Origin: Patescibacteria group bacterium
GTDB lineage: Bacteria; Patescibacteriota; JABMPQ01; JAQVVF01
Direction of reading: 5' to 3'
Assembly (NCBI GenBank): GCA_041662665.1
Contig: JBAZSC010000001.1
Location: 257,511-321,510 of the forward strand
Length of the DNA stretch: 64,000 nt
Shown: in pieces, positions 17,325-56,651 of the stretch
Position numbering within the stretch: the stretch's first letter is position 1
How the letters are laid out: each line of letters starts with the position of its first letter
The notes under the pieces: generated by a model
Told to the model about the DNA's origin: nothing
Database searches by the model: none
What the model saw: the letters and a program-made list of their open reading frames with translations, nothing else
Made by a program: the position numbers and the translations under genes

Positions 17325-17375
17325 AGATTTTAACTTACAATAACGCCAAGCCGTCATAAAAAATAAATTAAAATT

Positions 17376-18239: not shown

Positions 18240-18282
18240 TCTAGAACAAACGCCAAGCCGTCATAAAAAATAAATTAAAACT

Positions 18283-18921
18283 ATGCCAGAACAACCATCG
18301 CAAGTAGAATTAAAAGATATTCAACAAACGAAAGAAACAGAATCTGAAACAGGTTTAGAAATTGTTAAAACTCCTGAATCAGAACAATTTGTTGAACATG
18401 CCAATGAAATTCATGAAGCAATGCAAGCTGATGGGAAAATAACTGCTGGCCAAGTTGCAGATTTAAGAAAAGATTTAGAAGGATTAAAATATGATTTTTA
18501 CGGAGAACAATTATCAATTGCCGAAATCAGGCAAATCCCAGATCTTCAACATAATTTAAAAATTTGGCAAGAAATTTCTAATGGAAAATTTCGTAATTAT
18601 AAGGAATTAACTTATTTAACTCCAGAAATTGCTCAGAAAATTGTTTATCCCGCCTCAATCAAAAGAGTCGGTCACGCACCTATTCCACTTATCGATTTTC
18701 CACCCAGAGATTTATATTTAAACAACTTAAAAACATTATCTGTCGAATCGGCAAGGATATTGTTGAGGAGATTGTCAACAGGTGATCGAATACTTTCTCT
18801 TCAAGGTTTAGTAGATTTCCCTGAAGAAGAATTAGGATTATTAGATGATCCAAATATTCATTTGTCCCGAGAGCTTACATTAAAGTTGATTGAAAAAAAA
18901 GAAGAGATGGGTTTAATTTAA
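18283..18921 (+). CDS. paralog family P, member 3 (shorter, divergent C-terminus)
   Basis: Shares the N-domain with members 1 and 2. The stop lies 3 nt before the helicase ATG. Confidence 0.55.
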   Translation: MPEQPSQVELKDIQQTKETESETGLEIVKTPESEQFVEHANEIHEAMQADGKITAGQVADLRKDLEGLKYDFYGEQLSIAEIRQIPDLQHNLKIWQEISNGKFRNYKELTYLTPEIAQKIVYPASIKRVGHAPIPLIDFPPRDLYLNNLKTLSVESARILLRRLSTGDRILSLQGLVDFPEEELGLLDDPNIHLSRELTLKLIEKKEEMGLI

Positions 18922-21900: not shown

Positions 21901-22902
21901 TTGCCAGATTCAAATTCCAATATTCAAGAAGAAAGAAGACTATTTTATGTAGCAATGACTCGTGCAAAGAAAAGGTTATTTTTTACATCTGCCAATGATT
22001 ATGGCGGAAAAAGAAAAAAGAAAATTTCTAGATTTTTAGTTGAAATTAAAAAACATTTTGATAAAAATTCCGCGTTTTCTGCGTTAGATTCTGCGTGTTT
22101 CCGCGATAACAATATTTTAACGCAGAATAACGCTGAACCTAACGCAGAAAACGCGAAAAAGAAAATAAGATATTCTTTACCAAGTAAATTTTCATACACT
22201 CAGCTTAAAGCATTTGAAACTTGTCCGCATCAATACCGTTTCCGCCATATTATTGGTTTGCCAAGTTCAGGCGCTTCTTCTCAAAGTTATGGAAAAACAA
22301 TGCATGCAGTTTTGCAAAACTTTTTCGCTGATTTGCAAAAAGGAAAAAGTCCGACAGAAAAAGATTTATTAAGTTATTATGACAGTTTTTGGATCGATGA
22401 TTTTTATCAAGACAAAAAGCACGAACAAAAAAGATTTGAAGAAGGCAAGAAAGCTTTGCAAGAATTTTACAAAATAAATAATAAAAATTTAAAAGCGCCG
22501 TTATTTTTAGAAAAAGGCTTTAACCTAAGAATTAAAGACACATGTCTAAAAGGCCAGATTGATCGCATTGATAAATTAGATGATGGCACAGTTGAGATCG
22601 TTGATTATAAAACAGGCAAATTGCCAAAGAATGAAAAGGAAGTAGAGAAAAATGAGCAATTATTGATTTATTCTTATGCCTGCCAAAAAGTATTAAATTT
22701 AAAACCATCAAAACTAAGCCTTTATTTTATTGACCAAAACAAAAAATATTCTGCTAAACAAAATTCAATTAAAGAAGAAAAGATAATTCAAAAAGTCCAA
22801 GAACTAATTGCTAAAATTAAAGAATCAGAATTTATTGCCAAGCCAGGCTTTGCATGCAAATTTTGTGACTATAAGGATATCTGTGAACATGCTAAACATT
22901 GA
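18925..22902 (+). CDS. UvrD/PcrA-type SF1 helicase fused to a C-terminal RecB/Cas4-like PD-(D/E)xK nuclease with Cys cluster; intein-containing
   Basis: Walker A GAGTGKTT, motif III VVGDDDQ|...|SIYKFRGA split by the intein, and TENYRS. The C-terminal CPHQYRF...IDRIDKL...IVDYKTGK...CKFCDYKDICEH is an AddB/Cas4-like nuclease with four Cys. Confidence 0.8.
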   Translation: MLKDLNTEQLQAVKHETGPLLIVAGAGTGKTTAITKKLAYLILEKKVKPENILALTFTEKAAAEMEERVDKLMPYGYTDLWIETFHGFCDRILKDNALDVGLDPNYKLLTSAEQWMFIKSKIFDFDLKYYRPLGNPNSFISELIKHFSRAKDENILPEDYLKFVKKLSASAPAGASADKETIDKMSEVAKSYKKYQELMVAESQMDFGDLIIETLKLFKKRKNILKKYQKQFQYILVDEFQDTNFAQYQLLQLLAPPQNNLTVVGDDDQCLPPDSKIETKTGIKKINKIKKGELVLSAVGKGHTSYYQVNKVIKNKKNARFLNISTKNGNKITITDNHKMFCFVPLKSDKKYYYVYLMEKRNLGYRLGITNDLATRLRLERGADRIIGIKSFKSEIEARYYETLLSLKYQIPLTCFCFRPGVFMNKELLEKLYQEFDTYKNAERLAKDLKIDLSAHHFALDAVNRGSSLRIKIIIEQCYRKHVSKVRRGILFGPKISHSVIVETSDKKTIETLKKNGFNLRKARKNGFRFKYTDQDFQKVGQIALKLEKITGGILETRFEVGALNIKHRKALMMPAKNLLVGHFLPVLKKDNKEIIYDEIIDIKEKNKTSNVYDLEIEKTHNFIADNIVVHNSIYKFRGASVSNILQFQKDFPKSKKIVLTENYRSVQPILDLAYNSIQLNNPDRLEAKYKINKKLKSQIKSKSDLAINHIHKATYEQEAVDVIKNIINLKQKDKSTWSDFAILVRANSSAEIFINLLSSKKIPYQFIASRGLYSRPEIMDLISYLRVVANFYDNINFYRVLSLPIFKLNSEDIIRLVAYSRRKNLSIFDLACTPSRIVGLNKDSVEKFKVVVELVKKHAKLSLEKNAAEVLLDFLKTSGYLKYLQTNKDLEAEKKILNISLFFKRIQELQENKKLTVPEFIDQLDLMIEAGEDPSPIQLDEGPDSIKILTIHSSKGLEFDNVFVVNMVEGKFPSRNRKDLIELPEKLIKEQLPDSNSNIQEERRLFYVAMTRAKKRLFFTSANDYGGKRKKKISRFLVEIKKHFDKNSAFSALDSACFRDNNILTQNNAEPNAENAKKKIRYSLPSKFSYTQLKAFETCPHQYRFRHIIGLPSSGASSQSYGKTMHAVLQNFFADLQKGKSPTEKDLLSYYDSFWIDDFYQDKKHEQKRFEEGKKALQEFYKINNKNLKAPLFLEKGFNLRIKDTCLKGQIDRIDKLDDGTVEIVDYKTGKLPKNEKEVEKNEQLLIYSYACQKVLNLKPSKLSLYFIDQNKKYSAKQNSIKEEKIIQKVQELIAKIKESEFIAKPGFACKFCDYKDICEHAKH
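19426..19462 (+). repeat. family B nested-hairpin repeat inserted in-frame in the helicase CDS
   Basis: TCCGCCtccGCTCCtgcgGGAGCttcGGCGGAcaaag encodes SASAPAGASADKE. It is architecturally identical to the intergenic 27905-27941 CCCGCCttcGCTCCtcgtcatttGGAGCtacGGCGGG. Confidence 0.55.
19732..20820 (+). mobile_element. intein (363 aa) inserted in helicase motif III, with putative homing-endonuclease domain
   Basis: Begins with Cys (CLPPDSKIETKTG) right after VVGDDDQ and ends VVHN before S of SIYKFRGA, so excision restores the canonical VGDDDQSIYKFRGA. The internal YYYVYLMEKRNLGYRLGITNDLATRL is GIY-YIG-like. Confidence 0.75.
22068..22158 (+). repeat. CTGCGTT-unit palindromic repeat (family A) inserted in-frame in the helicase CDS
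   Basis: ccgCGTTttCTGCGTTagattCTGCGTgtttccgcg...AACGCAGAAtaacgctgaacctAACGCAGAAAACGcg. It translates in-frame as SAFSALDSACFRDNNILTQNNAEPNAENAKK, lying between the helicase and nuclease parts. Confidence 0.65.
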
Positions 22903-40984: not shown

Positions 40985-41006
40985 TCCGCATAACAGCGGA
41001 TTTTTT
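40985..41006 (+). terminator. rho-independent terminator after gatB (TCCGC-ataaca-GCGGA-TTTTTT)
   Basis: Hairpin plus T6, about 100 nt after the gatB stop. Confidence 0.6.
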
Positions 41007-41104
41007 GATACACGCGCACCTTAGACAAACCGCCTACGCTCTGCGGAGCTTCCACCTTCGCTTACGCTTCGGTGGACAAGTCGGCGGTCGAGGGAGGAAA
41101 AGGG

Positions 41105-42121
41105 ATGACAGTAGCTCTCGAGAGAGTTAGTCTCGATGGACATGAACAGCATGGACAGACAAATTGGTGGCAGAGCTATACAGTAACTTTCGATTTGCTT
41201 TGCAAAGAATTTGGTCAAGAAAATCTTCCTGCTGGTTTGCCTCCAAGAATTTTTGTTGTTGACAGTGAAGCTGGACGCAGATTTTTGACTGGCCGTCATC
41301 TTTGGGGTTGGCGCAAGATTAAGCTGATTAAGGAAGTTACTCGTTCTTTGGTTCAGCCATTGGTTGATATTTTCAAAGAATCAAATGGCGAAGTAACACA
41401 GTTTGTTCCATTGAGCGGCGCTGATCCAATGAAAATCGGAAAGGCTTTGCATCATGCTTTGATTTATCCATTCACTGTTGCGCCAATGGCAACAGCATAT
41501 ATTGAAGCAGATCGAAAAGAACAGAAAGATGGTAGCTTCAAAGCAAGGGTCAGAAAACCTTTGAAGAAATTCCCGAAACATCCAGTCGCAGTCATTGTTG
41601 ACACATGTTGCGCCTCTGGTTCTACTCTTCAAGAAACTGTCCGAAGAATTATTGACTGGTACAAGACTGATAAGAAGCCATTGCGCAAGATTATTTTCTT
41701 TACTGCCTGCGGATCACTGGAAGCGCTTCAAGGAATCTGGGCATATTGTCAAAGAAGATGCATCGAATTCATTCCAGTTTTTTCTGTTGGTCTTCATCGA
41801 GTATTTGATGAACCTGGAGTTCTTGGCAAGAGATTTACTGATCTTTCGCCAATTTCGGAAACTGCAATAATGCCTGCCTCATTCATTCCATCAGCAAATG
41901 TTTATTTTCAAGAGAAACCAATGTGTGCTGTTGGCGATGTTGGGGACAGCTTGAGTATGAAATTCGAACTTTATCTTTTTGAAACACTTCGCGAGCTTGC
42001 AATCTTAAAAATGGACTTGAACCGTTCTCCTTGGTGTGAAATGAGAAGTCAAATCCCAACAACTGTTTACTTAAAATTGCAGTCTGAACATATTGGAGAA
42101 TTTTTGTACTATCGTCATTGA
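41105..42121 (+). CDS. hypothetical PRTase-fold protein (PRPP-binding loop motif); GC-elevated gene with GC-rich leader
   Basis: VAVIVDTCCASGSTLQETV matches the type I phosphoribosyltransferase PRPP loop. GC is about 48%. GAGGGAGGAAAAGGG precedes the ATG at 41105, preferred over the ORF-track start at 41072. An 80-nt GC-rich leader carries the hairpin CCACCttcgcttacgcttcGGTGG. Confidence 0.45.
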   Translation: MTVALERVSLDGHEQHGQTNWWQSYTVTFDLLCKEFGQENLPAGLPPRIFVVDSEAGRRFLTGRHLWGWRKIKLIKEVTRSLVQPLVDIFKESNGEVTQFVPLSGADPMKIGKALHHALIYPFTVAPMATAYIEADRKEQKDGSFKARVRKPLKKFPKHPVAVIVDTCCASGSTLQETVRRIIDWYKTDKKPLRKIIFFTACGSLEALQGIWAYCQRRCIEFIPVFSVGLHRVFDEPGVLGKRFTDLSPISETAIMPASFIPSANVYFQEKPMCAVGDVGDSLSMKFELYLFETLRELAILKMDLNRSPWCEMRSQIPTTVYLKLQSEHIGEFLYYRH

Positions 42122-42206
42122 TCTTTGTTTGAAACACAAAACCGACTCTCGTCGGTTTTTTCTTTGTCCGCCGTAGCTTTAGCGGAGGCGGATTCTTTGT
42201 AACTAT

Positions 42207-42264
42207 TCTACCTTGCCCATGGCAAGGGTCATGAGTTTATTCTACCTCTGCCATGGGCAGAGTA
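42207..42264. repeat. GCCCATGGCAAGG palindrome-pair repeat (family C), intergenic copy
   Basis: ctaCCTTGCCCATGGCAAGGgtcatgagtttattctaCCTCTGCCATGGGCAGAGtag. A homologous copy lies in-frame inside miaB at 45138-45196. Confidence 0.65.
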
Positions 42265-42267
42265 GAA

Positions 42268-43215
42268 CTATTTCAAAAATTCTTTCACTAATTTATTCGC
42301 TTCACTATATTTTTCAATCCATTTTATTTTCTCATCTCTTTTAAACCAGCTTTCCTGTCGTCTCGCATATTGATGCGTATGGTATTTGATTTGTTGAATA
42401 ATTTCTGTTAAGACTTTTTCATCTTTAATTTTATTCAATTTTCCTTTGAACTCACCATAGCCAATTCCAGTCATTGCTGGTAGTCTCCAGGAATATTTTT
42501 TATTCAATTTTTTAACTTCTCTAATCAAGCCATCATCAATCATTTGGTCAACTCTTTTATCAATTCTTTTATATAGTTTTTCGCGATCTACTTTTATTCC
42601 AATTTGTAAAAAATTATATTTTGGTTCTCCTTTTTTTTGAAAAGAAGAAAAAGGTTTGCCTGTCTTAATGCAAACTTCGAGAGCTCGAATAATTCTTCTT
42701 TTATTTTGTCTTTGCACAAAGCTAGCAGATTTTGGATCTAATTTTATTAATCTTGCCCATAATTTTTCGATATCAATTTTTTCAAATTTTTTACGCAATT
42801 TAAAATCTGGAGGTACTTCTGGGATTGACAAGTTGTCAACTATAGCTTGAATATATAATCCAGTTCCACCAACTATTATTGGCAACTTTTTTCGTCTCAA
42901 AATATCATTAATAATTTCCTCAGCTTGTTTTTTGAATTCTGCAACAGAAAAGTCTTGATCTGGCTTAATTATATCTATCATGTAATGAGCAATATTTTCA
43001 CTATAAACAATCTTTTGTTTTCGATCGGCAATATTTTTGACTTTAGATTTTAGACTTTTAACCTTAGCAGTACCCACATCCATGCCAATATAAAACTGTC
43101 TTGAATCACAAGAAATTATTTCGCCATTATATTTTTTTGCAAATTTAATACCCATTCCGGATTTACCGGAAGCAGTCGGACCTAAGATAACGATAACTTT
43201 TGATAGTATTGACAT
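42268..43215 (-). CDS. miaA: tRNA dimethylallyltransferase
   Basis: MSILSKVIVILGPTASGKSGMGIKFAKKYNGEIISCDSRQFYIGMDVGTAK is the MiaA P-loop start. The ORF-track start at 43434 adds 73 non-conserved residues overlapping the divergent gene, so the ATG at 43215 is preferred. Confidence 0.85.
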   Translation of the reverse strand: MSILSKVIVILGPTASGKSGMGIKFAKKYNGEIISCDSRQFYIGMDVGTAKVKSLKSKVKNIADRKQKIVYSENIAHYMIDIIKPDQDFSVAEFKKQAEEIINDILRRKKLPIIVGGTGLYIQAIVDNLSIPEVPPDFKLRKKFEKIDIEKLWARLIKLDPKSASFVQRQNKRRIIRALEVCIKTGKPFSSFQKKGEPKYNFLQIGIKVDREKLYKRIDKRVDQMIDDGLIREVKKLNKKYSWRLPAMTGIGYGEFKGKLNKIKDEKVLTEIIQQIKYHTHQYARRQESWFKRDEKIKWIEKYSEANKLVKEFLK

Positions 43216-43275
43216 AATAATTGTAAAATGGTAGTTTGTATAGAAAGAAAATGCCTTAAAGGAAGGAGGAGAAGG

Positions 43276-43569
43276 ATGTCCATTTCCGAATTCATAATCC
43301 TGCTCATTATAGGTATTGTAGGTTGCTGTGTTATCTTTCTCGTAATGGTTGCAGTAATTATTGTACTTTTCGATCATGTTTTGCCCAAGTACGATAATTG
43401 GCGAGATAGAAGAGAAGCTCAAAGAAGAGCTCACAGAATTATTAGCTTAATAGGTATTTTTGTAAAGGAAGATGCTGAAGAAGATGTTTTACTAGCAAAA
43501 CGCAAACGAGTATTGGAAAATAGTTCGAAATTAGCTGATGCGAAGCAAAAAAGTAATATGTTAAACTAA
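43276..43569 (+). CDS. small hydrophobic membrane protein (SD-driven accessory gene)
   Basis: GGAAGGAGGAGAAGG precedes the ATG at 43276. Sequence MSISEFIILLIIGIVGCCVIFLVMVAVIIVLF, then a basic tail. Antisense to the miaB-miaA operon. Confidence 0.4.
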   Translation: MSISEFIILLIIGIVGCCVIFLVMVAVIIVLFDHVLPKYDNWRDRREAQRRAHRIISLIGIFVKEDAEEDVLLAKRKRVLENSSKLADAKQKSNMLN

Positions 43570-43615
43570 ATAATTAAGAATTCGATTTCGTACATTTTTT
43601 ACTAGACTTTTCTGT

Positions 43616-43646
43616 CTAGTTTTTTATTTCTCCTTCCAAAATCAAG
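43616..43646. repeat. 31-bp direct repeat, copy 1 (duplicate of the 3' end of miaB), preceded by terminator-like hairpin CTAGAC-ttttct-GTCTAG
   Basis: CTAGTTTTTTATTTCTCCTTCCAAAATCAAG matches 44198-44229 (CTAGTTTTTTATTTCTCCTTCCAAAATCCAAG) at 30/31 positions. Confidence 0.7.
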
Positions 43647-43749
43647 TTAAATATTAACAAATTTATAATGACTTTTGGTAAGCTGTTTGACATAAATTAT
43701 TTAACAGGATAATATTTAATATCGTACCCTTAGAAAAAGGAGGAGAAAA

Positions 43750-44163
43750 ATGAATTCAATAATTTTTTCTAGTGTTGTTGTTATAATATTTATTACGATC
43801 ATCTTGGTTTTGATTTTAGCATACAAAGGTAAAATCAATAAATTGAATCTTGATAATTATTATCTGTCTGAAATATGCAGACTCAATAGAACATTACTTG
43901 AAACAGCAAGACTTGAAACAAACAAAGAAGAAAAAACAAAGCAACAATTAGAAATAATTAAGAAATTTGCAAGCAAATTTGGAAGAGAAATTGCAAAAGC
44001 AGAATATTCTTATCGAAGACTTGAAGATTTGTTAACCTTTGCTTTAGAATTATGTGAAGAATTGCAAGAAATTGAAGAAAAGGAAAAAATAACAAATTTG
44101 ATCCAATACTTACAAGACATCAGAGTTGCAGTAAAAACTAAAGAGAGAGAAGGACGTTTTTAA
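43750..44163 (+). CDS. small membrane / coiled-coil protein carried on the DR-flanked cassette
   Basis: AAAGGAGGAGAAAA lies immediately upstream of the ATG. One N-terminal TM helix (IIFSSVVVIIFITIILVLILAY), then a helical, charged C-terminus. Confidence 0.45.
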   Translation: MNSIIFSSVVVIIFITIILVLILAYKGKINKLNLDNYYLSEICRLNRTLLETARLETNKEEKTKQQLEIIKKFASKFGREIAKAEYSYRRLEDLLTFALELCEELQEIEEKEKITNLIQYLQDIRVAVKTKEREGRF

Positions 44164-44197
44164 CAAAGTTTTAATAGCACCCTCAACTAGCATTAAG

Positions 44198-44229
44198 CTA
44201 GTTTTTTATTTCTCCTTCCAAAATCCAAG
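44198..44229. repeat. 31-bp direct repeat, copy 2 (the genuine last 10 codons plus stop of miaB, on the minus strand)
   Basis: The reverse complement encodes AWILEGEIKN*. It is also preceded by a hairpin (CTAGC-attaa-GCTAG). Confidence 0.7.
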
Positions 44230-45529
44230 CTAGAGATTTAGTAATCTTTGCTTTCACAATTTGTCCAATCAAATCTTTATCACTTTCAAATTTAACTAGC
44301 TTAAAAGTTTTTGTTCTGCCAAGATTTTTCTTTTCAACCAAAATATCAACAGTCTTTCCTAAATATTTTTTATTATTATTTAAAGCAGTTTTTCTCAAAA
44401 TATCATTCAAATAATTTTCTCGTCTTTTCTTTTCAGTCATTAAAACATTATCTTTCATTTTAAAAGAAATTGTTCCAGGTCTTGGTGAATATTTAGCTAA
44501 AAAAGCCATGTCGTATTTTACTTCTTTAAACAATTTACAAGTATCTAAAAATTGTTTTTTAGTTTCGCCTGGAAAACCAACAATAATATCCGTTGACAAA
44601 CAAACATCAGATAAATTCTTTTTTATCAATTTAACAAGCTTTAAATATTTTGCATGTGTATATTTTCTGTTCATCTTTTCCAAAATCAGATCATTTCCAG
44701 CTTGAGCAGGCAAGTGAATATAATGGCAGACTTTTTTGCAACTTTTTATTGTCTTAATTAACTTAAGACTCATATCTTTAGGATGTGATGTTACAAACCA
44801 AATCCAATAGTCATTTTCAATTAAATTCAACAATTTTAAAAGTGTTGCGAAATCACAATATTTTCCGAATTTAATTTTGGGATATTCGGATATTAAGATA
44901 TTAGATATTGTACCTTTATAACTGTTTACGTTCTGTCCTAATAAAGTAATCGCGTTGTAGCCATGTTTTAATAAAAATTTAACTTCGTCTAGAATTTCAT
45001 TGACTGGCCTAGATACTTCTCGTCCTCTTGAATATGGCACAACACAATATGAACAAAAATTATTACAGCCAGTCATAATCGGAACATAGGCATGAAATTT
45101 ACTTGAATAATTAGGATTAATTTTGAAATAGTTAGTTTCTACTTTGCCCATGGCAAAGGTTCGTTTCTTACGCGACCCCTGCCACGGGCAGGGTAGAATG
45201 CTTGGCCATTTTTTCAAATCCTTAATATCCAAAACAAAATCAGCAAAATTTTCAAATCTCTTTTTTTCTTTAACAGCAGAACATCCAGTTATAATTGCAA
45301 CTTGTTTATTCTTGCGAGCCAATTTCAAAGTTGAAATCGCTCTATTTTCCGCAGCCTGTCTAACTGAACATGAATTAACAATTACAAAATCAGCCAAATT
45401 TTCGCAATATACTTTCTTAAATTTTGCATTCAACAAAACAGACTCGATTCTTTCTGAATCAGAAATATTCATTTGACATCCAAATGTTTTAATAAAAAAT
45501 TTATTTTTCATATCCAAATAATTTACCAT
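44198..45529 (-). CDS. miaB: MiaB/RimO-family radical-SAM methylthiotransferase (tRNA 2-methylthio-adenosine synthase-like)
   Basis: MTTase N-domain FFIKTFGCQMNISDSERI, radical-SAM CxxxCxxC as TGCNNFCSYCVVP, and a TRAM-like C-terminus. Sits upstream of miaA on the same strand. Confidence 0.82.
   Translation of the reverse strand: MVNYLDMKNKFFIKTFGCQMNISDSERIESVLLNAKFKKVYCENLADFVIVNSCSVRQAAENRAISTLKLARKNKQVAIITGCSAVKEKKRFENFADFVLDIKDLKKWPSILPCPWQGSRKKRTFAMGKVETNYFKINPNYSSKFHAYVPIMTGCNNFCSYCVVPYSRGREVSRPVNEILDEVKFLLKHGYNAITLLGQNVNSYKGTISNILISEYPKIKFGKYCDFATLLKLLNLIENDYWIWFVTSHPKDMSLKLIKTIKSCKKVCHYIHLPAQAGNDLILEKMNRKYTHAKYLKLVKLIKKNLSDVCLSTDIIVGFPGETKKQFLDTCKLFKEVKYDMAFLAKYSPRPGTISFKMKDNVLMTEKKRRENYLNDILRKTALNNNKKYLGKTVDILVEKKNLGRTKTFKLVKFESDKDLIGQIVKAKITKSLAWILEGEIKN
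45138..45196 (-). repeat. family C palindrome-pair repeat inserted in-frame in the miaB inter-domain linker
   Basis: The + strand reads tctaCTTTGCCCATGGCAAAGGttcgtttcttacgcgacCCCTGCCACGGGCAGGGtagaa. In miaB it encodes ...LPCPWQGSRKKRTFAMGKVE..., lying between the MTTase and radical-SAM domains. Confidence 0.6.
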
Positions 45530-45607
45530 GAATTTTAAGTCTTGACAAGATAAGTTAAATATAATAATCTAATTTATTGCTCTTTCCAACCCAGAGGAGG
45601 GAAGAAG

Positions 45608-46168
45608 ATGAGAGAGATGTCTATTGTAAGATTGGATAGCTTTCCTGAACTTGCAGAAATCAAGAAAATGATAAATGAAGCTGACAAAAAATTCCGAAAT
45701 TGGCTTCTTTATGTTGTATTGTTCCTTCTTGTTATTTCTTACATTACATTTATCAATTTTGATTTTGGAATGTTTACGTCTGCTAATTTCACTATCTTTT
45801 TCCTTCTGTTGATAGCGTCCATGATTTTAGTGGTTCAGAAATTCGAACATGTTATGGCCAGAAATTCCATTTTGCGTCCTCGTTCTGATTTTGAAAAATA
45901 CTGCATTTTGATTTGTCAATATGCAAAAATTGTAAATGGACAAATCACTGAATTCAACACTTTGTTTTCTAATCTAAGAGAAGATCCGCATGGTACTGAC
46001 ATAAAAGATCATTATCATAGTGATAAGCTTGAAGTTGCGACAATCCTAGCAGAAAAGAAACGCTTTTTGGAAAATATTCTCAGCAATTTAGGCAAAGAAA
46101 AATCAAATCCAACTACTCTTCTAGTTGCAATTGCAATTATTGCAGAAAGAATCAAAAAGGAAAAGTAA
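45608..46168 (+). CDS. 2-TM small membrane protein, family M member (SD-driven)
   Basis: AGAGGAGGGAAGAAG lies immediately upstream of the ATG. Two TM helices, then a conserved block ARNSILRPRSDFEKYCILICQYAKIVNGQITEFN. Followed by terminator AGACCAtaattTGGTCTttttttt. Confidence 0.5.
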   Translation: MREMSIVRLDSFPELAEIKKMINEADKKFRNWLLYVVLFLLVISYITFINFDFGMFTSANFTIFFLLLIASMILVVQKFEHVMARNSILRPRSDFEKYCILICQYAKIVNGQITEFNTLFSNLREDPHGTDIKDHYHSDKLEVATILAEKKRFLENILSNLGKEKSNPTTLLVAIAIIAERIKKEK

Positions 46169-46285
46169 GCTAAAGCAAACGTACTTTTAGACCATAATTT
46201 GGTCTTTTTTTATTTCATCTTGCAAATTAATTCAAAACATCTTATCATAATACGTCGCACTCTACAATCAAAGGAGGAGGAGAAA

Positions 46286-47002
46286 ATGCCAAATCAACGA
46301 TCCGGTATTGAAATTTGTCAAGTACGCAATTTATGGGAATTAACAATATTCAAATTCGATCAAGATGATTTGAAAAAAATTGATAAAAAGATTAAGTTAG
46401 TTAAAGATGATGTCTCAAGAAAAGTATTTTTCATTACTTGTGTGATTTTAGTAATGTGCCTTGGCGGAATATTCATCCAGCCTAATGAAATATTGAAAAT
46501 CATTTCAGTCATTTTTGGCATTATTGATCTCATTGTCCTAATTTTTCATTTCTGTTTTGAAATTGAAAATATGCTTGCTAAGAATTATATTTCAAAGCCA
46601 AAAGATGCTTATGCAAAATATTGCCTTCAACTTTATCAATTGATCGTAATTATTAATAAGCAAATTACGAGATATAATCTTGCCGTTAGAAATATGATTA
46701 TGATCAGATCTAGCGAAGGCGAAAGTATTTACGATGAAAATCTCTACAAACTCAAAAAGAAGCTATCAAAAAAAATAGAAAGGATTTCCATTATTGTTGA
46801 ATCTTTGCCTGAAATCAAAAGAACAATCATCGATCAAGAATCGAGTGCCTTAATTGCCGAACTTAGTCATCTTGCAATTTCAGAAGTAGACCAAGCCAAT
46901 CCACTTTTATCATGTCCAATTAGTCCAGAAGGCTTAGAAGAAGAGATTGAGCGAGAAGAGGAAGTTCTGGCAAGTTTTCAAGAACCTAATCAAAACCAAT
47001 AA
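46286..47002 (+). CDS. 2-TM small membrane protein, family M paralog
   Basis: AAAGGAGGAGGAGAAA precedes the ATG at 46286. The block AKNYISKPKDAYAKYCLQLYQLIVIINKQITRYN is paralogous to the previous gene. Followed by terminator AGACCAtttcGGTCTtttttt. Confidence 0.5.
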   Translation: MPNQRSGIEICQVRNLWELTIFKFDQDDLKKIDKKIKLVKDDVSRKVFFITCVILVMCLGGIFIQPNEILKIISVIFGIIDLIVLIFHFCFEIENMLAKNYISKPKDAYAKYCLQLYQLIVIINKQITRYNLAVRNMIMIRSSEGESIYDENLYKLKKKLSKKIERISIIVESLPEIKRTIIDQESSALIAELSHLAISEVDQANPLLSCPISPEGLEEEIEREEEVLASFQEPNQNQ

Positions 47003-47181
47003 CGTACTTTCAAGACCATTTCGGTCTTTTTTTAATTATCAACAGTTTATTTGTTTTTAAAGCCGATTTATTGTATAATAAATTAAAGTTTATAAATATT
47101 TAAAATAAAAATACAAGCTTAAAAAAGTATATCTAGAAATTATATATTTTTAGATGATCTTAATTTAAGTTTTTAAACAAA

Positions 47182-48018
47182 ATGGCAAACGGAGTACCTC
47201 CAACAAATTTACCAACAGACGATCAAAACAAAACAACAAATGAACCACCAAAAAGAGAATTCAAACCATCTCAAGACAGAGTGCAGAATTTTCGTCAGCA
47301 AATGGGCAGAATAAATCCAGATCCAGGAATGCCAAATCGTCCAACGCCTCCAGCTCCACCAAAGCCACCAACACCGCCAGCACCACGTCCACAAGCACCA
47401 AGACCACAGCCTCCTATGCCTCCAAAGTCTCAGCCTCCAGTTCCTCAATTTAAACCAAAAGCGCCTACACCTGCACCGATGCCTCCAAAACCTCAACCTC
47501 AACCTCAGCCGATGACCAAACCTCAAGCTCCGATGCAACCAAAATCACCAGAAATGCCACAACATGCTGATGGACCATCAATTGAGCAAGTAGAGAAAAA
47601 GAATTTAGTCGTTAAAATTATAATTTTAATTCTTGTTGTTGCTGCTTTAGCTGGATTAGTTTTAGGTGGAGTTTTCGCCTACAACAAATGGCTTAATCCA
47701 TCTTCAAAAACAAACACTAATATTGTAGTTAATACTAATCAGCAAGTTGTACCGGAAAATGTGATCATAAAAGAGCAGATTAAAATTAAAGATACTGATG
47801 GTGATACAATGACTGATGAATGGGAAATAAAATATGGATTAGATCCAAACGATCCAGCAGATGCTCAAAAAGATAATGATAAAGACAAGCTAATAAATAT
47901 TGAAGAATTTAAATACAAAACAAATCCAAATAGTCAAGATACAGATGGTGACACATTCAGCGATTATGTTGAGATCCAAAAAGGTTTTAATCCAAATGGA
48001 CAAGGCAAACTTAAATAA
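47182..48018 (+). CDS. membrane-anchored Pro-rich surface protein with Ca-binding thrombospondin-type-3-like repeats
   Basis: PTPPAPPKPPTPPAPRPQAPRPQPPMPP tract, one TM helix, then DTDGDTMTDEWE..GLDPNDPAD..DNDKD and DTDGDTFSDYVE (DxDxDG repeats). Confidence 0.5.
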   Translation: MANGVPPTNLPTDDQNKTTNEPPKREFKPSQDRVQNFRQQMGRINPDPGMPNRPTPPAPPKPPTPPAPRPQAPRPQPPMPPKSQPPVPQFKPKAPTPAPMPPKPQPQPQPMTKPQAPMQPKSPEMPQHADGPSIEQVEKKNLVVKIIILILVVAALAGLVLGGVFAYNKWLNPSSKTNTNIVVNTNQQVVPENVIIKEQIKIKDTDGDTMTDEWEIKYGLDPNDPADAQKDNDKDKLINIEEFKYKTNPNSQDTDGDTFSDYVEIQKGFNPNGQGKLK

Positions 48019-48023
48019 TATAT

Positions 48024-48551
48024 ATGCAAAATTCTGGATTTCACAAATCAGCACCACCAATCAATATTCCTACTAATCAAAAACCAAATCTAGAATTTAA
48101 ATATCTGGAAACTGATAACAACAAGAAGCATCCCATTCTTGTTGTTTTACTTATCTTATTCTTCATTGCAATTTTAGTCGTTGCTTTCATTATTGCTTAT
48201 GATTTTTTTCAAAAAAATGAGCAAGCAAATTTAACTGCAGATTTATCAAATCAAGATATTGATGGTGATGGATTAACAACAATTGAGGAGCTAAAAAATG
48301 ACACTGATCAAAATCAATATGATTCAGATTTTGACAAAATGTCGGACGGCTGGGAAGTCAGAAACAATCTCAATCCAAAAGATTATCTTGATGCTACAAA
48401 AGATAATGATCAAGATGGATTAACAAATTTACAAGAATTGCAATATAATTCAAATCCAAATAATAAAGATACTGATAATGATGGCGTAAAAGACGGTGAT
48501 GAAGTTGCAAATAATTTAAACCCAAATGGTGATGGTAAAATCATTAAATAA
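48024..48551 (+). CDS. membrane-anchored protein with thrombospondin-type-3-like DxDxDG repeats (paralog of previous)
   Basis: TM helix ILVVLLILFFIAILVVAFIIAY, then DIDGDGLTTIEELKND, DNDQDGLTNLQELQYN and DTDNDGVKDGDE. Confidence 0.5.
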   Translation: MQNSGFHKSAPPINIPTNQKPNLEFKYLETDNNKKHPILVVLLILFFIAILVVAFIIAYDFFQKNEQANLTADLSNQDIDGDGLTTIEELKNDTDQNQYDSDFDKMSDGWEVRNNLNPKDYLDATKDNDQDGLTNLQELQYNSNPNNKDTDNDGVKDGDEVANNLNPNGDGKIIK

Positions 48552-49923
48552 AAATAAATTTTACTTTTTTGAAGCTATTTTAATTTTAGGATTAGCAATA
48601 TTTTTGCCAAAAATTTCTTTTGCAAAAATTCCATTCAATATTTTAGTTAGTACTGGTTTTGGAGTTAATCCACAATTGCACGAATTTTCAAATACTGGAA
48701 AAATTTCTAGCTATCTATCTGATCTCAAAAATTTACCAAGCAACAATAAAGGCATTAATTTAGCTTCCGGCGATGTTGATGGCGATGCTGTTGATGAAAT
48801 TATTGTTTCACAACGAGCCGGCGGAATTCCGCAAGTTTTTGTTTTTGAAAAAAATGGCAAATTAAAAATGGTTTTCAAACCTTATCCCTCAAATTCACAA
48901 ACTGGAATTAATATTGCAACAGGTGACGTTGATAAAGATGGCAAAGATGAAATAGTTACTGTTCCAGCTGAAGGCGGAGTTGCTTTAGTCAAAATTTATC
49001 GTTTTAACAAAAAACAAGAAATTATTAAAGAATTTAAAGCCTTTAGCAATGATAGCTGTGGAGCATCAGTTGCTGCTGGAGATATTGATCATGATGATAA
49101 AGATGAAATAATTGTTGGCAATGGTCCGAAATGTTCGCCAAAAATTCGTGTTTATGAATCAAATGGCGCAAGATTGCCTTTAGAATTTTATGCTTTTAAT
49201 CCAAATTTTCTAGGCGGAATAGATGTCGCAGCTGGCGATGTTGATAAAGATGGAATTGATGAAATCGGTACTTGCCAATCGCAACAACAAGCTTGGTGCA
49301 AGATTTATAAATACAAAAATAATACGCCTTTAATTGGATCCTGGCTAGCTTATAATAATTTTGAAGTTGGTGCCAGAATTGATTTCGCTGATTTAGATTC
49401 TGATGGACGAGACGAGGTTCTTACTGGAACAGCCCATGGCACTCCGCAAGTTCGTTTTTTTGAAGCATCTGGTTCGCCAATTAATATAAATTTTTATCCA
49501 TTTCCAAAAAATTATAATTCAGGAATTGATGTTGCGCCATTTTTTGCCAATAAAAAATCTCAAGAAAAAGTTATTTATGTTGAAGATGGAGATAGCGTTT
49601 ATCTAACAGATGGCCGAGAAATGCGCTATATTGGAGTCAATACACCAGAAGTTGGCAAGAAATTTTATGAAGAAGCAATTAATTTAAATAAAAGATTAGT
49701 CGAAAATAAAAATGTAATTTTAGAATATGATGTTGATCGCGAAGACCATATCGGCAGAGATTTAGCCTATGTTCATGTCGGCAAGAAATTCATCAATAAA
49801 ATTTTAGTTTCAAAAGGTTTAGCTAAAGTAGACACTTTCAAGCCAAATGTTAAATATAGATCAGTATTTAAAAAAGCCCAAGCAAGGGCTCAAAGAATGC
49901 ATCGAGGGATGTGGAGGAGGTGA
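48526..49923 (+). CDS. secreted FG-GAP/VCBS-like repeat protein fused to C-terminal staphylococcal-nuclease (SNase/thermonuclease) domain
   Basis: Signal peptide, then repeated G(D)VD.DG.DEI(IV) units (six or more). The C-terminal DGDSVYLTDGREMRYIGVNTPE...GRDLAYVHV...ARAQRMHRGMW matches the SNase fold. Confidence 0.6.
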   Translation: MVMVKSLNKNKFYFFEAILILGLAIFLPKISFAKIPFNILVSTGFGVNPQLHEFSNTGKISSYLSDLKNLPSNNKGINLASGDVDGDAVDEIIVSQRAGGIPQVFVFEKNGKLKMVFKPYPSNSQTGINIATGDVDKDGKDEIVTVPAEGGVALVKIYRFNKKQEIIKEFKAFSNDSCGASVAAGDIDHDDKDEIIVGNGPKCSPKIRVYESNGARLPLEFYAFNPNFLGGIDVAAGDVDKDGIDEIGTCQSQQQAWCKIYKYKNNTPLIGSWLAYNNFEVGARIDFADLDSDGRDEVLTGTAHGTPQVRFFEASGSPININFYPFPKNYNSGIDVAPFFANKKSQEKVIYVEDGDSVYLTDGREMRYIGVNTPEVGKKFYEEAINLNKRLVENKNVILEYDVDREDHIGRDLAYVHVGKKFINKILVSKGLAKVDTFKPNVKYRSVFKKAQARAQRMHRGMWRR

Positions 49924-49926
49924 AGT

Positions 49927-50033
49927 TTCTACTCAGCTTTAGCTGAGGTTGTGCAACTTTAGTTGCAGTTTAGAACAGCTTTAAACGCACTAAAACTAAA
50001 GTTTTACGAACCCTTGGCTAAAGCTAGGTAGAA
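49927..50033. mobile_element. MITE-like element, copy 2 (same TIRs as 16397-16489, different interior)
   Basis: TTTCTACTCAGCTTTAGCTGAGG ... CCTTGGCTAAAGCTAGGTAGAAA. The interior has GCAACtttaGTTGC and AACAGCTTTAAACgcactaaaactAAAGTTTT hairpins. It overlaps the last 3 codons of folC. Confidence 0.55.
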
Positions 50034-51280
50034 ATCAAAAGTGTTTTATAAGCAGATATAGAATAAATTGATCCGCAAATCAAAATAGGTAGTTTATTTT
50101 TTAAAGCCAATTCCTTGGCTTTTTTGATTGCCAAATTCAATTCCATAATCTGTCCATTTTTATAATATTTTTTTAGCTGTTCTGGTTCAAACATCATATC
50201 AAGATCTAGTTTTGGAAAAATAATCTCTGAAATTATTGGTTTTAAAATTTTTAAATTTTGTTTTGCATCTTTAGTTATCTTAGCAGAAAACAAAACGATC
50301 GCTTTTTTATATTTTAAATCTTTGAAAGTTTTAACTAAAGTTTTAAATCCTCCAGGATTATGAGCAGAATCGATGATAATGGGAAATGGGAAATGAGAAG
50401 TGGGAGGTGTGATCTGAAAACGCATCTGCCATTTTACCTCAAGAAATCCTTTTTTAATTGCGTCTTCAGAAATTTTATACTTTTTTTGCAATTCTTTTAT
50501 TGCCGAGAAAACAATTCCAGCATTTCGCATTTGATGTTCGCCAAGTAACGAAAGCTTATAAATTTTACTTATTTTACCGCTTTTTACTAGTCTCGCTTTT
50601 TTATTTTTGCAAACTTTTTTAATAACATTTAAAGCAGTACCAGAATTAGAAGTAACAACAATAGAATTTTCTTTTATAATTCCAGCTTTTTCTTTAGAAA
50701 TTTTTGCAATTGTATTTCCTAGATATTCTTTATGATCAATTGAAATGTCGGTTATTGCTTCAATGCCTAAATTTAAAACATTTGTCGCATCAAGTCTGCC
50801 ACCCAAACCAACTTCAAAAATAACAAAATCAACTTTCTCTTCTTTAAAATATAAAATAGCAATGCAAGTTAAAATCTCAAACCAAGTTGGCTGATCATTA
50901 ATTTCTTTTTTAACTTGCAAAACATATGGCTTAATTCTTTCAAAATATTTCGCCAATTCTTTTTCTGAAATATCAATATAATCAATTCTAATTCTTTCAG
51001 TCATTTTGAAAATATGTGGAGAAGTAAAAAGACCGCATTTATAGTGAGCTTGAGTTAAAATGCTTTGCAAACTTGCAGAAACAGATCCCTTGCCATTTGT
51101 TCCAGCCACATGCACACCTTTTAAATCTTTTTCTGGATTGCCTAATAATTCCAACAATTTTTCAACTCTTTTCAAATTTAACCAAGTCCTCTTTTTTGGA
51201 GGAGTATCAAAAAGTTTTTCGTATTTTAATAAAATATTTTTCATAAACCTAAAAATAGCATAAAGCGATGATGTTGACAA
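50024..51280 (-). CDS. folC: Mur-ligase family protein, folylpolyglutamate synthase/dihydrofolate synthase-like
   Basis: GTNGKGSVSA P-loop. The MurC/FolC central-domain architecture is present. Length 418 aa. Confidence 0.65.
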   Translation of the reverse strand: MSTSSLYAIFRFMKNILLKYEKLFDTPPKKRTWLNLKRVEKLLELLGNPEKDLKGVHVAGTNGKGSVSASLQSILTQAHYKCGLFTSPHIFKMTERIRIDYIDISEKELAKYFERIKPYVLQVKKEINDQPTWFEILTCIAILYFKEEKVDFVIFEVGLGGRLDATNVLNLGIEAITDISIDHKEYLGNTIAKISKEKAGIIKENSIVVTSNSGTALNVIKKVCKNKKARLVKSGKISKIYKLSLLGEHQMRNAGIVFSAIKELQKKYKISEDAIKKGFLEVKWQMRFQITPPTSHFPFPIIIDSAHNPGGFKTLVKTFKDLKYKKAIVLFSAKITKDAKQNLKILKPIISEIIFPKLDLDMMFEPEQLKKYYKNGQIMELNLAIKKAKELALKNKLPILICGSIYSISAYKTLLIST

Positions 51281-51341
51281 GACATTTAATTTATGATAGA
51301 CTCAAAAGCTAGCTAAGCGCAGCTGGAGGAGGAGGAAGGAC

Positions 51342-51959
51342 ATGAATCGAAGAGAGATTGAAATCGCCAGAGCAAGTTTTTCAGATGACTGTAGAAGAAT
51401 TCGAGAAAATACTATCAAGCCAATTCCTCTGCATTGGAAAACTGATGAAATCGTCAAGAACTATCAACGGTTTCCTTGGTTGCCATCTTGCCTTAGTTTT
51501 TCTGCTATCTGTTTTTCAATCGCAGTATTTGTGTTTGGTGACAGCACATTTGCATTATTGATTACTGCCATATCGCTAATACTTGGGATAGTTGCTTTGA
51601 CAAATGCTTTCTCCGGCTATTGCAAGAATTGGAAGCTCACACCGGAAATAAAGTTTCATCTTGAACTTGCTGAAAAAGTTGCGCAATTGAATGCTAAAAT
51701 TGAAAGGCATAATACACTGTATCTTCGGTCTTTGCACAATCCAGAAATGCAAACAAATCTAGCAATTATCAAAGGTGACATCCTGAAAGCCCAAGAAAGG
51801 ATGTCTCGAATATACCAAGCAGTACCGCTTGTTAATGAAGCAAACGCACTATCTGCGCTTGACGACCCAACGGCAATTCCTGCTCAGGAAATTCAAGCTC
51901 TTCAAGATGATCTGGAAAGAACTCGACTCTTGCTTGAAGCTTACGACGAATTAAGATAG
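51342..51959 (+). CDS. 2-TM small membrane protein with C-terminal coiled-coil (SD-driven, GC-elevated)
   Basis: GGAGGAGGAGGAAGGAC lies immediately upstream of the ATG. Two TM helices at residues about 45-95, then a helical C-terminus. It has the same architecture as 45608 and 46286. Followed by hairpin GTAGCGACAGGGCAGTGCCCTGTCGCTAC. Confidence 0.45.
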   Translation: MNRREIEIARASFSDDCRRIRENTIKPIPLHWKTDEIVKNYQRFPWLPSCLSFSAICFSIAVFVFGDSTFALLITAISLILGIVALTNAFSGYCKNWKLTPEIKFHLELAEKVAQLNAKIERHNTLYLRSLHNPEMQTNLAIIKGDILKAQERMSRIYQAVPLVNEANALSALDDPTAIPAQEIQALQDDLERTRLLLEAYDELR

Positions 51960-52144
51960 CGATTGTACATTCTTAAGGTTCTCATAGAGCCTTTTTTTAT
52001 TTCTCAAATTTTATCAGTAGCGACAGGGCAGTGCCCTGTCGCTACGTGTTATAAATCAAAAAACCAGCATTATTTTTTGCTGGTTTTATGTTCAAAAAGT
52101 TTCGAAACTCGGTTTTTCTTAAAACCGAGTTTCTTGAGAATGTA

Positions 52145-54912: not shown

Positions 54913-55485
54913 ATGAGACCAGAACAACCAATTCAAGAAAATCTAGCTGATATTAAAGAGCCTTCAAAGCAAACAGAAGGCGGTCTTGAAATTGCAAAAA
55001 CGCCTGAATCAAAAACAGTTGTAGATTTAGCCAATGAATTTCATGAAGCAATACAAAATGATTCACCAATTACTTATGGGAAAGTTGAAGATTTTAGAGA
55101 AGCTTTAGGAAAAATGAAATTTAATATTGATGGAGAATTAATGACAATAGAGGAAGCCAGAAAAATTCCCAATCTAAAAGAAAACCTAAAAATAATGAAA
55201 GAAATTGAAGCTGGAAATTTCAATAATATTTACAAGCTTACTTATTTAACAGATAGAATCGCCGAATCTCTAAGTCGTTCTCAAAATGACCTTCGCTTAA
55301 ATCGCCTGACATCATTATCTGATCTATCTGCTGCATCTCTAAGTCATCATCAAGGTAATCTTTATCTTAATAGTCTCAACTCCATCTCAAACAAAGCCGC
55401 AAAATTTTTAAGCCATCATCGAGGCAACGTTTACGCGAATGATGAAATTACACAGCAAATAAACAAATTTAAAGTTAGAAAATAA
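54913..55485 (+). CDS. paralog family P, member 4
   Basis: N-domain RPEQPIQENLADIKEPSKQTEGGLEIAKTPES. Its first 85 nt are 100% identical to the start of member 5. LRR-like tail LTSLSDLSAASLSHHQGNLYLNSLNSISNKAAKFL. Confidence 0.55.
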   Translation: MRPEQPIQENLADIKEPSKQTEGGLEIAKTPESKTVVDLANEFHEAIQNDSPITYGKVEDFREALGKMKFNIDGELMTIEEARKIPNLKENLKIMKEIEAGNFNNIYKLTYLTDRIAESLSRSQNDLRLNRLTSLSDLSAASLSHHQGNLYLNSLNSISNKAAKFLSHHRGNVYANDEITQQINKFKVRK

Positions 55486-56651
55486 TGCCAAATCCAGAAC
55501 AACCAATTCAAGAAAATCTAGCTGATATTAAAGAGCCTTCAAAGCAAACAGAAGGCGGTCTTGAAATTGCCAAAACAGAAGCTTCAGAAAGAGTTGTTAA
55601 AACTGCCGATCAAATTCATAATGCAATGGAAGCAAATGAACCAGTCTATAAAAAAACAGTTGATGAACTAAGAGAGGCATTATCAAAGCTTGAGTATAAT
55701 TTTTATGGCGAAAAAATGACGTTGCAAGAGATAAAAGAGATTCAAGAACAAAATAAAGAAGCTTGGGAAATGATTACAACTGGAAGAAATTTCAATGTTT
55801 GGCTGCTAAATCGCATCCTAACATTTCTGACTCCTGATGTTGCTAAACGCTTAGTAGAAAGAATGAAGCCAAATCAAAATTCATTATTATATCTTGATAG
55901 CTTAAAAAGTATCTCTACAAAAGTCGCCCAAGAATTAATAAAACATGAAGGTCCATTATATCTAGATGGAGTAGAAGAAATGTCTCTTGATGTCTTAAAA
56001 AGCTTATGTCAAAAAGAACACAAAACAGGATTAAGTCTAGGACTAAAATCTATATCTAAAGAGCAAGCCGAAGTTATCAAAAATTACAAAGGTCCAATTA
56101 GCTTAACAAAGCTTACAGAAATGGATTCTGCTTCTGCGCATGAACTAGGCGAATTACAAGGTTATTCATTAAGATTAGGTTTAGAAAGCTTGCCTCCAGA
56201 TGTCGCGCAAGAATTAGCAAATTTTAAAAGCGATGAAAGCAATTCTTACAAAAAATTATCTTTTATTTCATTGCAATATATTTCTCCAGAATCTGCCCAA
56301 AAATTTGATTCTTACGTTCAAGAATTAAATTTTGTCACAATGGAAAAAATAGATTTAGAAACAGCAAAAGGATTTAGAAATTTTTCCGGCACATTGGAAT
56401 TTGGTGATTTTATAGAATTTGACGATGAAACAGCCAAAGCTCTTTCAGAAAGCGATGCAGATTTAGGATTGAATATTTTAAAAGAAATTTCTCTACAAGC
56501 TTTACGATATTTTGCCAGCCGACAGAAAAAAGTTTATTTAACTGGCTTAGAAGCAGAGAATCTAACACCAGAACATTTGCGCATTATTGCCAATTCCGAA
56601 AATATTGTAGTTGATAATGAAATCAAAGAATTAGCAGCCAAACATAAATAA
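55485..56651 (+). CDS. paralog family P, member 5 (longest LRR-like repeat region)
   Basis: TAATG stop/start overlap with member 4. It carries more than 8 repeats of L.L..L.SIS...A..L....G.L.L. Confidence 0.55.
   Translation: MPNPEQPIQENLADIKEPSKQTEGGLEIAKTEASERVVKTADQIHNAMEANEPVYKKTVDELREALSKLEYNFYGEKMTLQEIKEIQEQNKEAWEMITTGRNFNVWLLNRILTFLTPDVAKRLVERMKPNQNSLLYLDSLKSISTKVAQELIKHEGPLYLDGVEEMSLDVLKSLCQKEHKTGLSLGLKSISKEQAEVIKNYKGPISLTKLTEMDSASAHELGELQGYSLRLGLESLPPDVAQELANFKSDESNSYKKLSFISLQYISPESAQKFDSYVQELNFVTMEKIDLETAKGFRNFSGTLEFGDFIEFDDETAKALSESDADLGLNILKEISLQALRYFASRQKKVYLTGLEAENLTPEHLRIIANSENIVVDNEIKELAAKHK

Follow-up and report, generated by a model that had tools for sequence, protein, structure and literature searches.

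The miaB and miaA genes of the Patescibacteria genome studied here are co-oriented on the minus strand and split by two plus-strand genes, as originally described, the spacer measuring 982 bp. miaA is the former translationally coupled downstream partner of miaB, and between the two genes of the spacer lies a second copy of the end of miaB. The question raised by this arrangement is how the tail of a housekeeping gene came to be displaced into such a position, and whether the unit enclosed by the two copies is a mobile gene cassette that landed at the miaB stop codon, as the original prediction proposed. The locus was analysed within a stretch of 64 kb, hereafter the window, that forms part of a contig recorded as 645 kb. 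The positions of the features discussed are given in Table 1.

Table 1. Features of the miaB-miaA region, in window coordinates
Feature	Position	Strand	Description and basis
miaA	42268..43215	-	tRNA isopentenyltransferase, 315 aa; Pfam IPPT, E 9.9e-75
Gene 1	43276..43569	+	orphan, 97 aa, N-terminal TM helix, charged C-terminus; ORF and RBS
Gene 1 hairpin	43601..43630	+	intrinsic-terminator-like, ACTAGAC-TTTTCT-GTCTAGT and T-tract; terminator scan
Repeat copy A	43616..43646	-	non-coding; repeats the final 32 nt of miaB; first 28 nt exact
Unit between repeats	43647..44197	+	551 bp; promoter-like site, RBS, gene 2, 5' arm and loop of terminator 2
Gene 2	43750..44163	+	orphan, 137 aa, N-terminal TM helix, four predicted helices
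Gene 2 hairpin	44185..44213	+	intrinsic-terminator-like, AACTAGC-ATTAA-GCTAGTT and T-tract; terminator scan
Repeat copy B	44198..44229	-	true miaB 3' end, codons AWILEGEIKN and stop
miaB	44198..45529	-	radical-SAM methylthiotransferase, 443 aa; Pfam Radical_SAM, UPF0004, TRAM

The duplicated tail and the genes of the spacer

The 31-bp direct repeat that had been noticed at this locus is real. Its exact core, the 28-mer CTAGTTTTTTATTTCTCCTTCCAAAATC, occurs twice in the 64-kb window, at 43616-43643 and 44198-44225 (582 nt apart, start to start), and when one 1-nt gap (C/CC) is admitted the match extends to 31 of 32 nt, copy B corresponding to the last 10 codons of miaB plus the stop. The chance expectation for a repeat of this length is 0 (100 shuffles), and among the exact direct repeats of the window it ranks as the 7th-longest, all the longer ones lying in paralogous genes. 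The search for additional copies that might serve as att-like sites gave no third one in the 64-kb window with up to 3 mismatches allowed, and a 27-mer of the repeat had no exact match in the JGI metagenome or IMG/VR collections; a degenerate scan of metagenomes for WILEGEIKN followed by a stop was equally fruitless. The identity between the copies has a sharp edge, located exactly at the base that matches the miaB stop codon. Beyond both copies the sequences compare at shuffle level (Smith-Waterman, 150 nt per side, 10 versus 11.5 ± 1.8 and 11 versus 11.3 ± 2.0), and for the same reason a longer miaB pseudogene hidden upstream of copy A was rejected.

Mis-assembly had been named as a finding that would refute the cassette proposal. 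The sequence comes from a metagenome-assembled genome and the spacer is a variable region, so that an assembler might have joined two strain variants of the spacer in tandem. Two further assemblies bear on this point. A Logan contig (L001, from SRR18595301) is 100% identical to positions 42164-52046 of the window and hence spans both copies, and a contig from ENA built by MEGAHIT at k141 (L093) is 100% identical to positions 42804-43753, covering copy A and 107 nt past the junction, into the gene 2 promoter. In de Bruijn assemblers a repeat shorter than k cannot make a loop in the graph; the 28-nt repeat is below both k=31 and k=141, hence no loop would form at those values. The three assemblies, possibly from related samples, agree base for base at the junction, and the structure is therefore taken as real; the artefact explanation is scarcely credible.

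Both plus-strand ORFs of the spacer have a GGAGG-type RBS and an N-terminal hydrophobic helix, which agrees with their first description as small membrane-protein genes with strong ribosome-binding sites. Gene 1 is preceded by GGAAGGAGGAG at 43261-71, and initiation at another ATG further upstream, at 43228, would yield a product of 113 aa. Gene 2 has GGAGGAG at 43739-45 and a promoter-like site, TTGACA-17-TAATAT, at 43687-43715. The codon score of gene 1 is +0.18 bits/codon in frame, the other five frames being negative; that of gene 2 is +0.31 bits/codon and positive in the annotated frame only, and miaB scores +0.26. A GC content above that of the surroundings had also been attributed to both genes, and this holds, slightly, for gene 1 (0.344) but not for gene 2 (0.270), the values for miaB, miaA and the whole window being 0.290, 0.296 and 0.324. 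The GC and GC3 (0.19) of gene 2 are similar to those of neighbouring genes, and a compositional signal of foreign DNA in this gene was rejected because its codon usage and GC3 fit the host genes. Judged by these sequence properties, genes 1 and 2 look like real, native-style genes.

Neither gene has a detectable family. Gene 1 retrieved only itself from 5.8e9 protein clusters, and gene 2 only itself from 5.8e9 clusters plus 1.84e9 representatives, with no tblastn match in phage and plasmid collections. Pfam returned nothing above sub-threshold noise for either protein. The AF2 model of the gene 2 product is all-helical, a TM helix and four helices (pLDDT 60.6), and Foldseek found no fold match for it in the PDB (best E 1.5). 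A source copy of the 551-bp unit was sought in the window and in the related loci compared, and was rejected, there being no DNA or translated similarity. An Rfam scan of positions 41000-47500 gave only a spurious miRNA match, on a palindromic element.

Terminator-like hairpins predicted at the miaB tail

Each copy of the repeat had been described as preceded by its own short hairpin. This is right and can be sharpened, in that the repeat itself supplies the 3' arm of the hairpin together with the T-tract. Read on the plus strand, each copy opens with CTAGT, followed by TTTTTATTT; CTAGT (the first 4-5 nt of the copy) belongs to the 3' arm, and the next 10 nt are the T-tract. In hairpin 1 these elements come from copy A, and in hairpin 2 they come from the stop and last codons of miaB, while the 5' arms and loops differ between the two. 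The predicted RNA folds have energies of -9.0 kcal/mol (z -4.6) for hairpin 1, at 43601-43620, and -7.9 kcal/mol (z -3.5) for hairpin 2, at 44185-44203. Both show what is expected of an intrinsic terminator, namely a stable GC-containing hairpin, with a U-tract directly behind it, located past a stop codon. Neither hairpin is followed by a U-tract on the minus strand.

On the strand opposite to miaB the tail reads as CTAG plus TTTTTTATTT, and each copy may act as the 3' arm and U-tract of a terminator that each antisense gene would complete with a 5' arm and loop of its own. Since the predicted terminators are one-directional, lacking a U-tract on the miaB strand, transcription could still read through from miaB to miaA. 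Terminators of convergent genes that overlap a coding 3' end have the same hairpin and U-tract, to which the stop and last codons of the convergent gene contribute. The present case differs from them in that the coding-derived half is duplicated and combined with another 5' arm for a second gene, the 3' end of a coding sequence being thereby reused as half of a predicted terminator.

The miaB-miaA junction in related genomes

In species-level genomes MiaB relatives reach at most 52% identity; closer ones were obtained from a large protein collection (P0003 80%, P0004 79%, P0005 77%, P0006 57% and P0007 59%). The contigs of these relatives are syntenic with the window, with thrS, a Mur ligase gene, SNase/FG-GAP, miaB, miaA, gatB, tmk, thyX and L1. 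In three outgroup contigs (L086, L089 and L094) miaB and miaA overlap by 7 nt (ATGTTAA), within the sequence …GGA(A/T)GGAGAA(A/T)TATGTTAA, and in a fourth (L095) they are 58 nt apart. The miaB tail GGA(A/T)GGAGAA is conserved there and thus constitutes the Shine-Dalgarno sequence of miaA in those three genomes. The four outgroups with miaB and miaA contiguous indicate that the contiguous operon is ancestral and the split derived. What is missing from these empty sites is the whole 982-bp spacer, and not the 0.55-kb unit alone.

One contig (L083) represents the sister of the window genome, as judged from MiaB, which in both carries the same two in-frame insertions and ends in the derived sequence EIKN*. 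Its operon is also split, and its miaB ends in the same 35 nt as that of the window (…GCTTGGATTTTGGAAGGAGAAATAAAAAACTAG), followed by a CTAG hairpin of its own (-9.9 kcal/mol). The slot is occupied there by a pair of zinc-ribbon paralogues, 83 and 81 aa long (42% identity, E 2e-20), that are unrelated to genes 1 and 2 of the window, and it contains a single miaB tail, no second one having been found. The presence of the split in both sisters, with unrelated contents, implies that it existed in their common ancestor and that the content was replaced in at least one lineage. Exact-protein look-ups and scans of the collections revealed no genome with only gene 1 (an allele that would read ...GTCTAGTTTTTTATTTCTCCTTCCAAAATCCAAGCTAGAG) or only gene 2 beside miaB.

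The comparison with the sister also gives an indication of age. miaB differs by 19.4% between the two genomes, and the two copies of the tail differ at 1 position of 32, so the duplication appears much younger than the separation of these lineages; this reading is weakened by short gene-conversion patches in the window genome, for example a stretch of 77 identical nt in paralogues that share 43% identity. Selection acting specially on the nucleotide sequence of the miaB tail was considered and rejected, since the miaB genes of the two sisters share 11 identical runs of at least 20 nt, one of them of 48 nt.

The junction was also surveyed more widely. In all 72 Patescibacteria species loci with both genes, miaA lies downstream of miaB on the same strand. 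The gap between them does not exceed 35 nt in 31 species and measures 36-300 nt in another 16; the remaining 25 have gaps of more than 300 nt, and in these the longest ORF of 60 aa or more runs antisense in 19 cases and sense in 2, while 4 contain no such ORF. With antisense ORFs in 19 of the 25 long gaps, the junction can be regarded as a recurrent slot for antisense lineage-specific genes. Thus, an ancestrally coupled gene pair has been split repeatedly in Patescibacteria, almost always by genes of this type, which makes the junction a convenient site, simple to locate, for studies of gene turnover and of the origin of orphan genes in the phylum. The duplication of the tail is unique to the window genome among the loci checked: the 34 other Patescibacteria loci in which about 180 nt or more separate the two genes all lack a miaB-tail repeat of at least 12 nt.

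Stacked genes in a slot of this kind could have arisen by tandem duplication of one unit comprising a promoter, an antisense gene, a terminator and 32 nt of miaB, followed by fast divergence, the tail being kept identical by terminator constraint or by gene conversion. Exactly the observed layout would result from a duplication that had one of its endpoints 32 nt within miaB, antisense genes are duplicated in the slot of the sister and, in this genome, on the other side of miaB, and patches of perfect identity inside diverged paralogues do exist here. Moreover, in both proteins further helices come after a TM helix, and the RBS regions of genes 1 and 2 are identical at 20 of 25 positions, although this likeness is mostly the common Shine-Dalgarno sequence and its score is at shuffle level. 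However, the gene 1 and gene 2 units have no detectable similarity in DNA or protein (Smith-Waterman 15 versus 14 ± 1.9 for shuffles; BLASTP E 24), whereas real tandem paralogues here and in the sister are still recognisable. An internal control is provided by tandem-duplicated genes of 186 and 238 aa in the window, whose products still match at E 2e-8 and whose terminator stems (AGACC/GGTCT) are homologous. The terminator requires only about 14 of the 28 non-coding nt, yet all 28 are perfectly conserved, and neutral DNA is not expected to survive longer than coding sequence. It is implausible that the 28-mer stayed perfect while the adjacent genes diverged past recognition, and the tandem duplication is considered an unlikely origin of the locus.

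Origin of the displaced tail

Integrative elements and cis-mobilisable remnants target the 3' ends of genes and duplicate them as attL and attR. The proposal of a mobile cassette leans on this geometry: a cassette with a miaB-tail att would have joined the miaB 3' end by means of a recombinase acting in trans. Indeed, direct repeats of the target's 3' end flank the insert, the intact gene being at the proximal repeat and the displaced tail at the distal one. The copies do bracket gene 2, as had been stated, since it is held by the 551-bp unit between them, and this unit has a promoter-like site, an RBS and half a terminator of its own. The different content of the slot in the sister genome would also fit. 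On the other hand, the recommended look for an integrase or recombinase on the contig revealed no integrase, transposase or resolvase domain in the approximately 50 ORFs of the 64-kb window. The repeat exists as two copies only in 64 kb and was absent from the metagenome and viral collections, no tail duplication was seen in the 34 other long-gap loci, and gene 2 has no homologue in the collections searched and shows native codon usage. The 32-mer lacks convincing dyad symmetry (7/10 between A/T-rich ends). Compared with known elements that target gene 3' ends, the locus thus has the bracketing repeats and the intact target gene, but neither a recombinase nor further copies of site or cargo were found, and the insert measures only 0.55 kb and has a host-like composition. 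Besides, the layout is symmetric, gene 2 beside miaB or gene 1 plus the tail beside miaA fitting equally well as the newcomer, so that calling gene 2 the cassette is unjustified. Site-specific integration is accordingly judged decidedly improbable. From the original prediction, the derived character of the insertion and the duplicated tail as a young scar are retained, but mobility and site-specific integration are not.

Insertion sequences and MITEs are recognised by terminal inverted repeats and short (2-14 bp) target duplications; here the duplication is of 31-32 nt and no terminal inverted repeats have arms at 43647 and 44197. In integrons, the arrays beside intI and attI are made of cassettes whose ORF lacks a promoter and precedes an imperfect palindrome, attC. 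An integron cassette was rejected, as the unit has its own promoter-like site and RBS, the only hairpins are 7-bp terminator stems and no integrase was found. A dif/Xer-like site was rejected as well, the 28-mer having no 11-6-11 dyad. A bolder proposal would be that the miaB tail (CTAG, the T-tract and about 18 nt more) is dedicated to the docking of cassettes in a minimal exchange system of this clade. If that were true, a recombinase encoded elsewhere would swap or stack promoter-bearing orphan units at a terminator-embedded site, and the long gaps of the 25 species among 72, with their 19 antisense and 2 sense ORFs, would be its footprint. There is very little likelihood that this is so.

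A recombinase would not be required if a fragment from elsewhere in the same genome had been captured at a break inside the miaB tail with no homologous anchor, either at a staggered break with fill-in or by template switching, which would leave a long target duplication around it. The sharp-edged direct repeats flanking a unit of native composition would be produced in this way. Nevertheless, a stagger of 31-32 nt is unusually long, the source copy of the 551-bp unit is absent from the 64-kb window, and fragment capture leaves unexplained why the edge of the repeat coincides with the miaB stop codon and the base of the hairpin. We therefore hold it to be a rather unlikely explanation.

Very probably the locus is the genuine scar of a duplication that happened once, and not a cassette able to move by itself. 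As for the specific mechanism, that which we prefer, with about an even chance of being correct, is a homology-anchored illegitimate recombination that stacked two slot units, an event of the type called homology-facilitated illegitimate recombination (HFIR) or 'end-displacement'. The miaB-miaA junction would be, in this clade, a slot of fast turnover for lineage-specific antisense genes, and a single recent recombination would have stacked two unrelated orphan gene units in it. One end of the event would lie in, or be anchored by, conserved miaB sequence, and at the other end the DNA would have been joined illegitimately, 32 nt upstream of the stop of miaB. The partners may have been two slot alleles on sister DNA, or one of them may have been DNA taken up from a co-occurring strain. 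The outcome would be a displaced, non-coding miaB tail (copy A) between the units, with miaB intact.

Several observations are consistent with this anchored recombination. A displaced end of the anchor gene lies between two unrelated modules, with identity that finishes where the anchor gene does, and a relative has alternative slot content, the zinc-ribbon paralogues of the sister, next to an identical miaB tail. The edge of identity at the miaB stop is where alleles with different cassettes would lose homology, which fits the stacking of alleles, and the host-like codon usage of both genes is compatible with DNA donated by the same genome or by one very close to it. It counts against this mechanism that illegitimate joins are rare events. 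The donor allele was not found by exact-protein look-ups or collection scans, and the junction has no diagnostic microhomology, there being no parental sequences for comparison. Scars of illegitimate or anchored recombination that include a displaced gene end are already known, and this locus is another instance of them, which leaves the current understanding of mobile elements unchanged. The locus is a small evolutionary scar and shows how a streamlined genome (contig recorded as 645 kb) can gain an orphan gene beside a housekeeping gene that is left unbroken.

Displaced 3' ends have been described in other systems. In the arrays of Rhs, CDI and T6SS effector-immunity loci a new module at the anchor pushes the older module and a displaced 3' fragment downstream, and the stacked modules are mutually unrelated (PMC5361080). 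The present locus resembles them in the stacking and differs in that a tRNA-modification gene with a housekeeping role serves as the anchor, antisense genes for orphan membrane proteins take the place of toxin/immunity pairs, and there is a single displaced tail with no sign of repeated rounds. HFIR, with displaced 3' ends as its product, has been proposed for these T6SS, Rhs and CDI loci (PMC5361080; PMC3240628). In HFIR a conserved gene anchors one end of the incoming DNA and the other end joins illegitimately, so that non-homologous DNA is added and short duplications are possible, and the work on it concerns naturally transformable bacteria, namely Acinetobacter, S. pneumoniae and P. stutzeri (cited in PMC5361080). 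The case proposed here differs in that it would be read from a single scar, with no donor found. Patescibacteria as a phylum have type IV pili and conserved com genes, and Saccharibacteria have been shown to undergo natural transformation (PMC10633639). The window itself encodes PilM and a pilin-like protein.

The miaB-miaA junction across Patescibacteria

The miaB-miaA junction has repeatedly served as an insertion slot in Patescibacteria. The gap between the two genes exceeds 300 nt in 25 of the 72 species whose loci (L003-L082) carry both, and the longest open reading frame in these 25 gaps lies antisense in 19 cases and on the sense strand in 2. Several distant lineages keep between miaB and miaA a small, very basic peptide of about 46-60 amino acids, encoded on the sense strand and conserved in sequence (…KQQKREELLRKKKIKQKKGGTLAGQ…RAQTAKNY…), for which a Pfam search returned no match (coordinates are listed in the table). 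In the window, no recognisable Shine-Dalgarno sequence for miaA was found at 43216-43275 after the splitting of the operon, and the miaA ATG is overlapped only by a weak promoter-like site in that interval (TATACA-17-TATTAT). Expression of miaA may proceed from a leaderless transcript or by read-through from miaB.

Coordinates of repeats, peptides and tandem genes
Feature	Locus	Coordinates	Position or strand
Basic peptide	L050	7325-7465	sense
Basic peptide	L055	1732-1875	sense
Basic peptide	L006	7640-7792	sense
Basic peptide	L014	8377-8559	sense
Basic peptide	L060	8090-8311	sense
62-bp GC-rich palindromic element, copy 1	window	45137-45198	in frame within miaB
62-bp GC-rich palindromic element, copy 2	window	42206-42267	directly past miaA stop
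GC-rich repeat of a second kind, CCCTCTCCGTCTTCGCCCGCCG … AGCTTTAGCAAAAGCGAAGGCGGGA … GGCGGGCTTCGACGGACAAAGTCCG	window	7352-7467, 8327-8442	intergenic
CCGCCGTAGCTTTAGC hairpin, related to second repeat	window	42168-42183	downstream of miaA
Tandem paralogous membrane/helical proteins	window	45608-46168 and 46199-47002	right beside miaB
Group of three paralogues in tandem (272, 287 and 212 aa)	window	16506-18921

A palindromic element in miaB and after miaA

The palindromic element consists of TTCTACYTTGCCCATGGCAARGGT, 14 nt and an inverted copy of TTCTACYTTGCCCATGGCAARGGT, and its copy within miaB adds about 20 amino acids (PCPWQGSRKKRTFAMGKVET) to the miaB product between the UPF0004 and radical-SAM domains. 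Both sites are filled in the sister genome L083 (~8290-8370 and ~10830-10915), one of them with an additional hairpin nested inside, and both are empty in the outgroups L086 and L089. The element may be akin to the Rickettsia palindromic elements, which insert into coding sequences.

Paralogous genes and an intein

The products of the tandem genes beside miaB are 35% identical over a 46-aa core (E 2e-8). At 46189-46205 and 47012-47028 lie the homologous terminators of the two genes, each made of AGACC…GGTCT and a run of T. L083, L086 and L089 lack the second copy; hence the duplication arose in the lineage of the window. Elsewhere, two adjoining paralogous genes of 190 and 388 aa begin with the same 77 nt, an exact direct repeat (54919-54995 and 55494-55570, spacing 575), and are only 43% identical outside it. 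The repeat looks like either a patch of gene conversion or an N-terminus under constraint. Several perfectly identical patches of 25-40 nt are also common to the three tandem paralogues, the one tested against Pfam giving no match. Finally, a UvrD/AddA-type helicase-nuclease of 1325 aa (18925-22902) carries within its helicase N-terminal domain an intein with Intein_splicing and Hint domains, at residues ~268-632.
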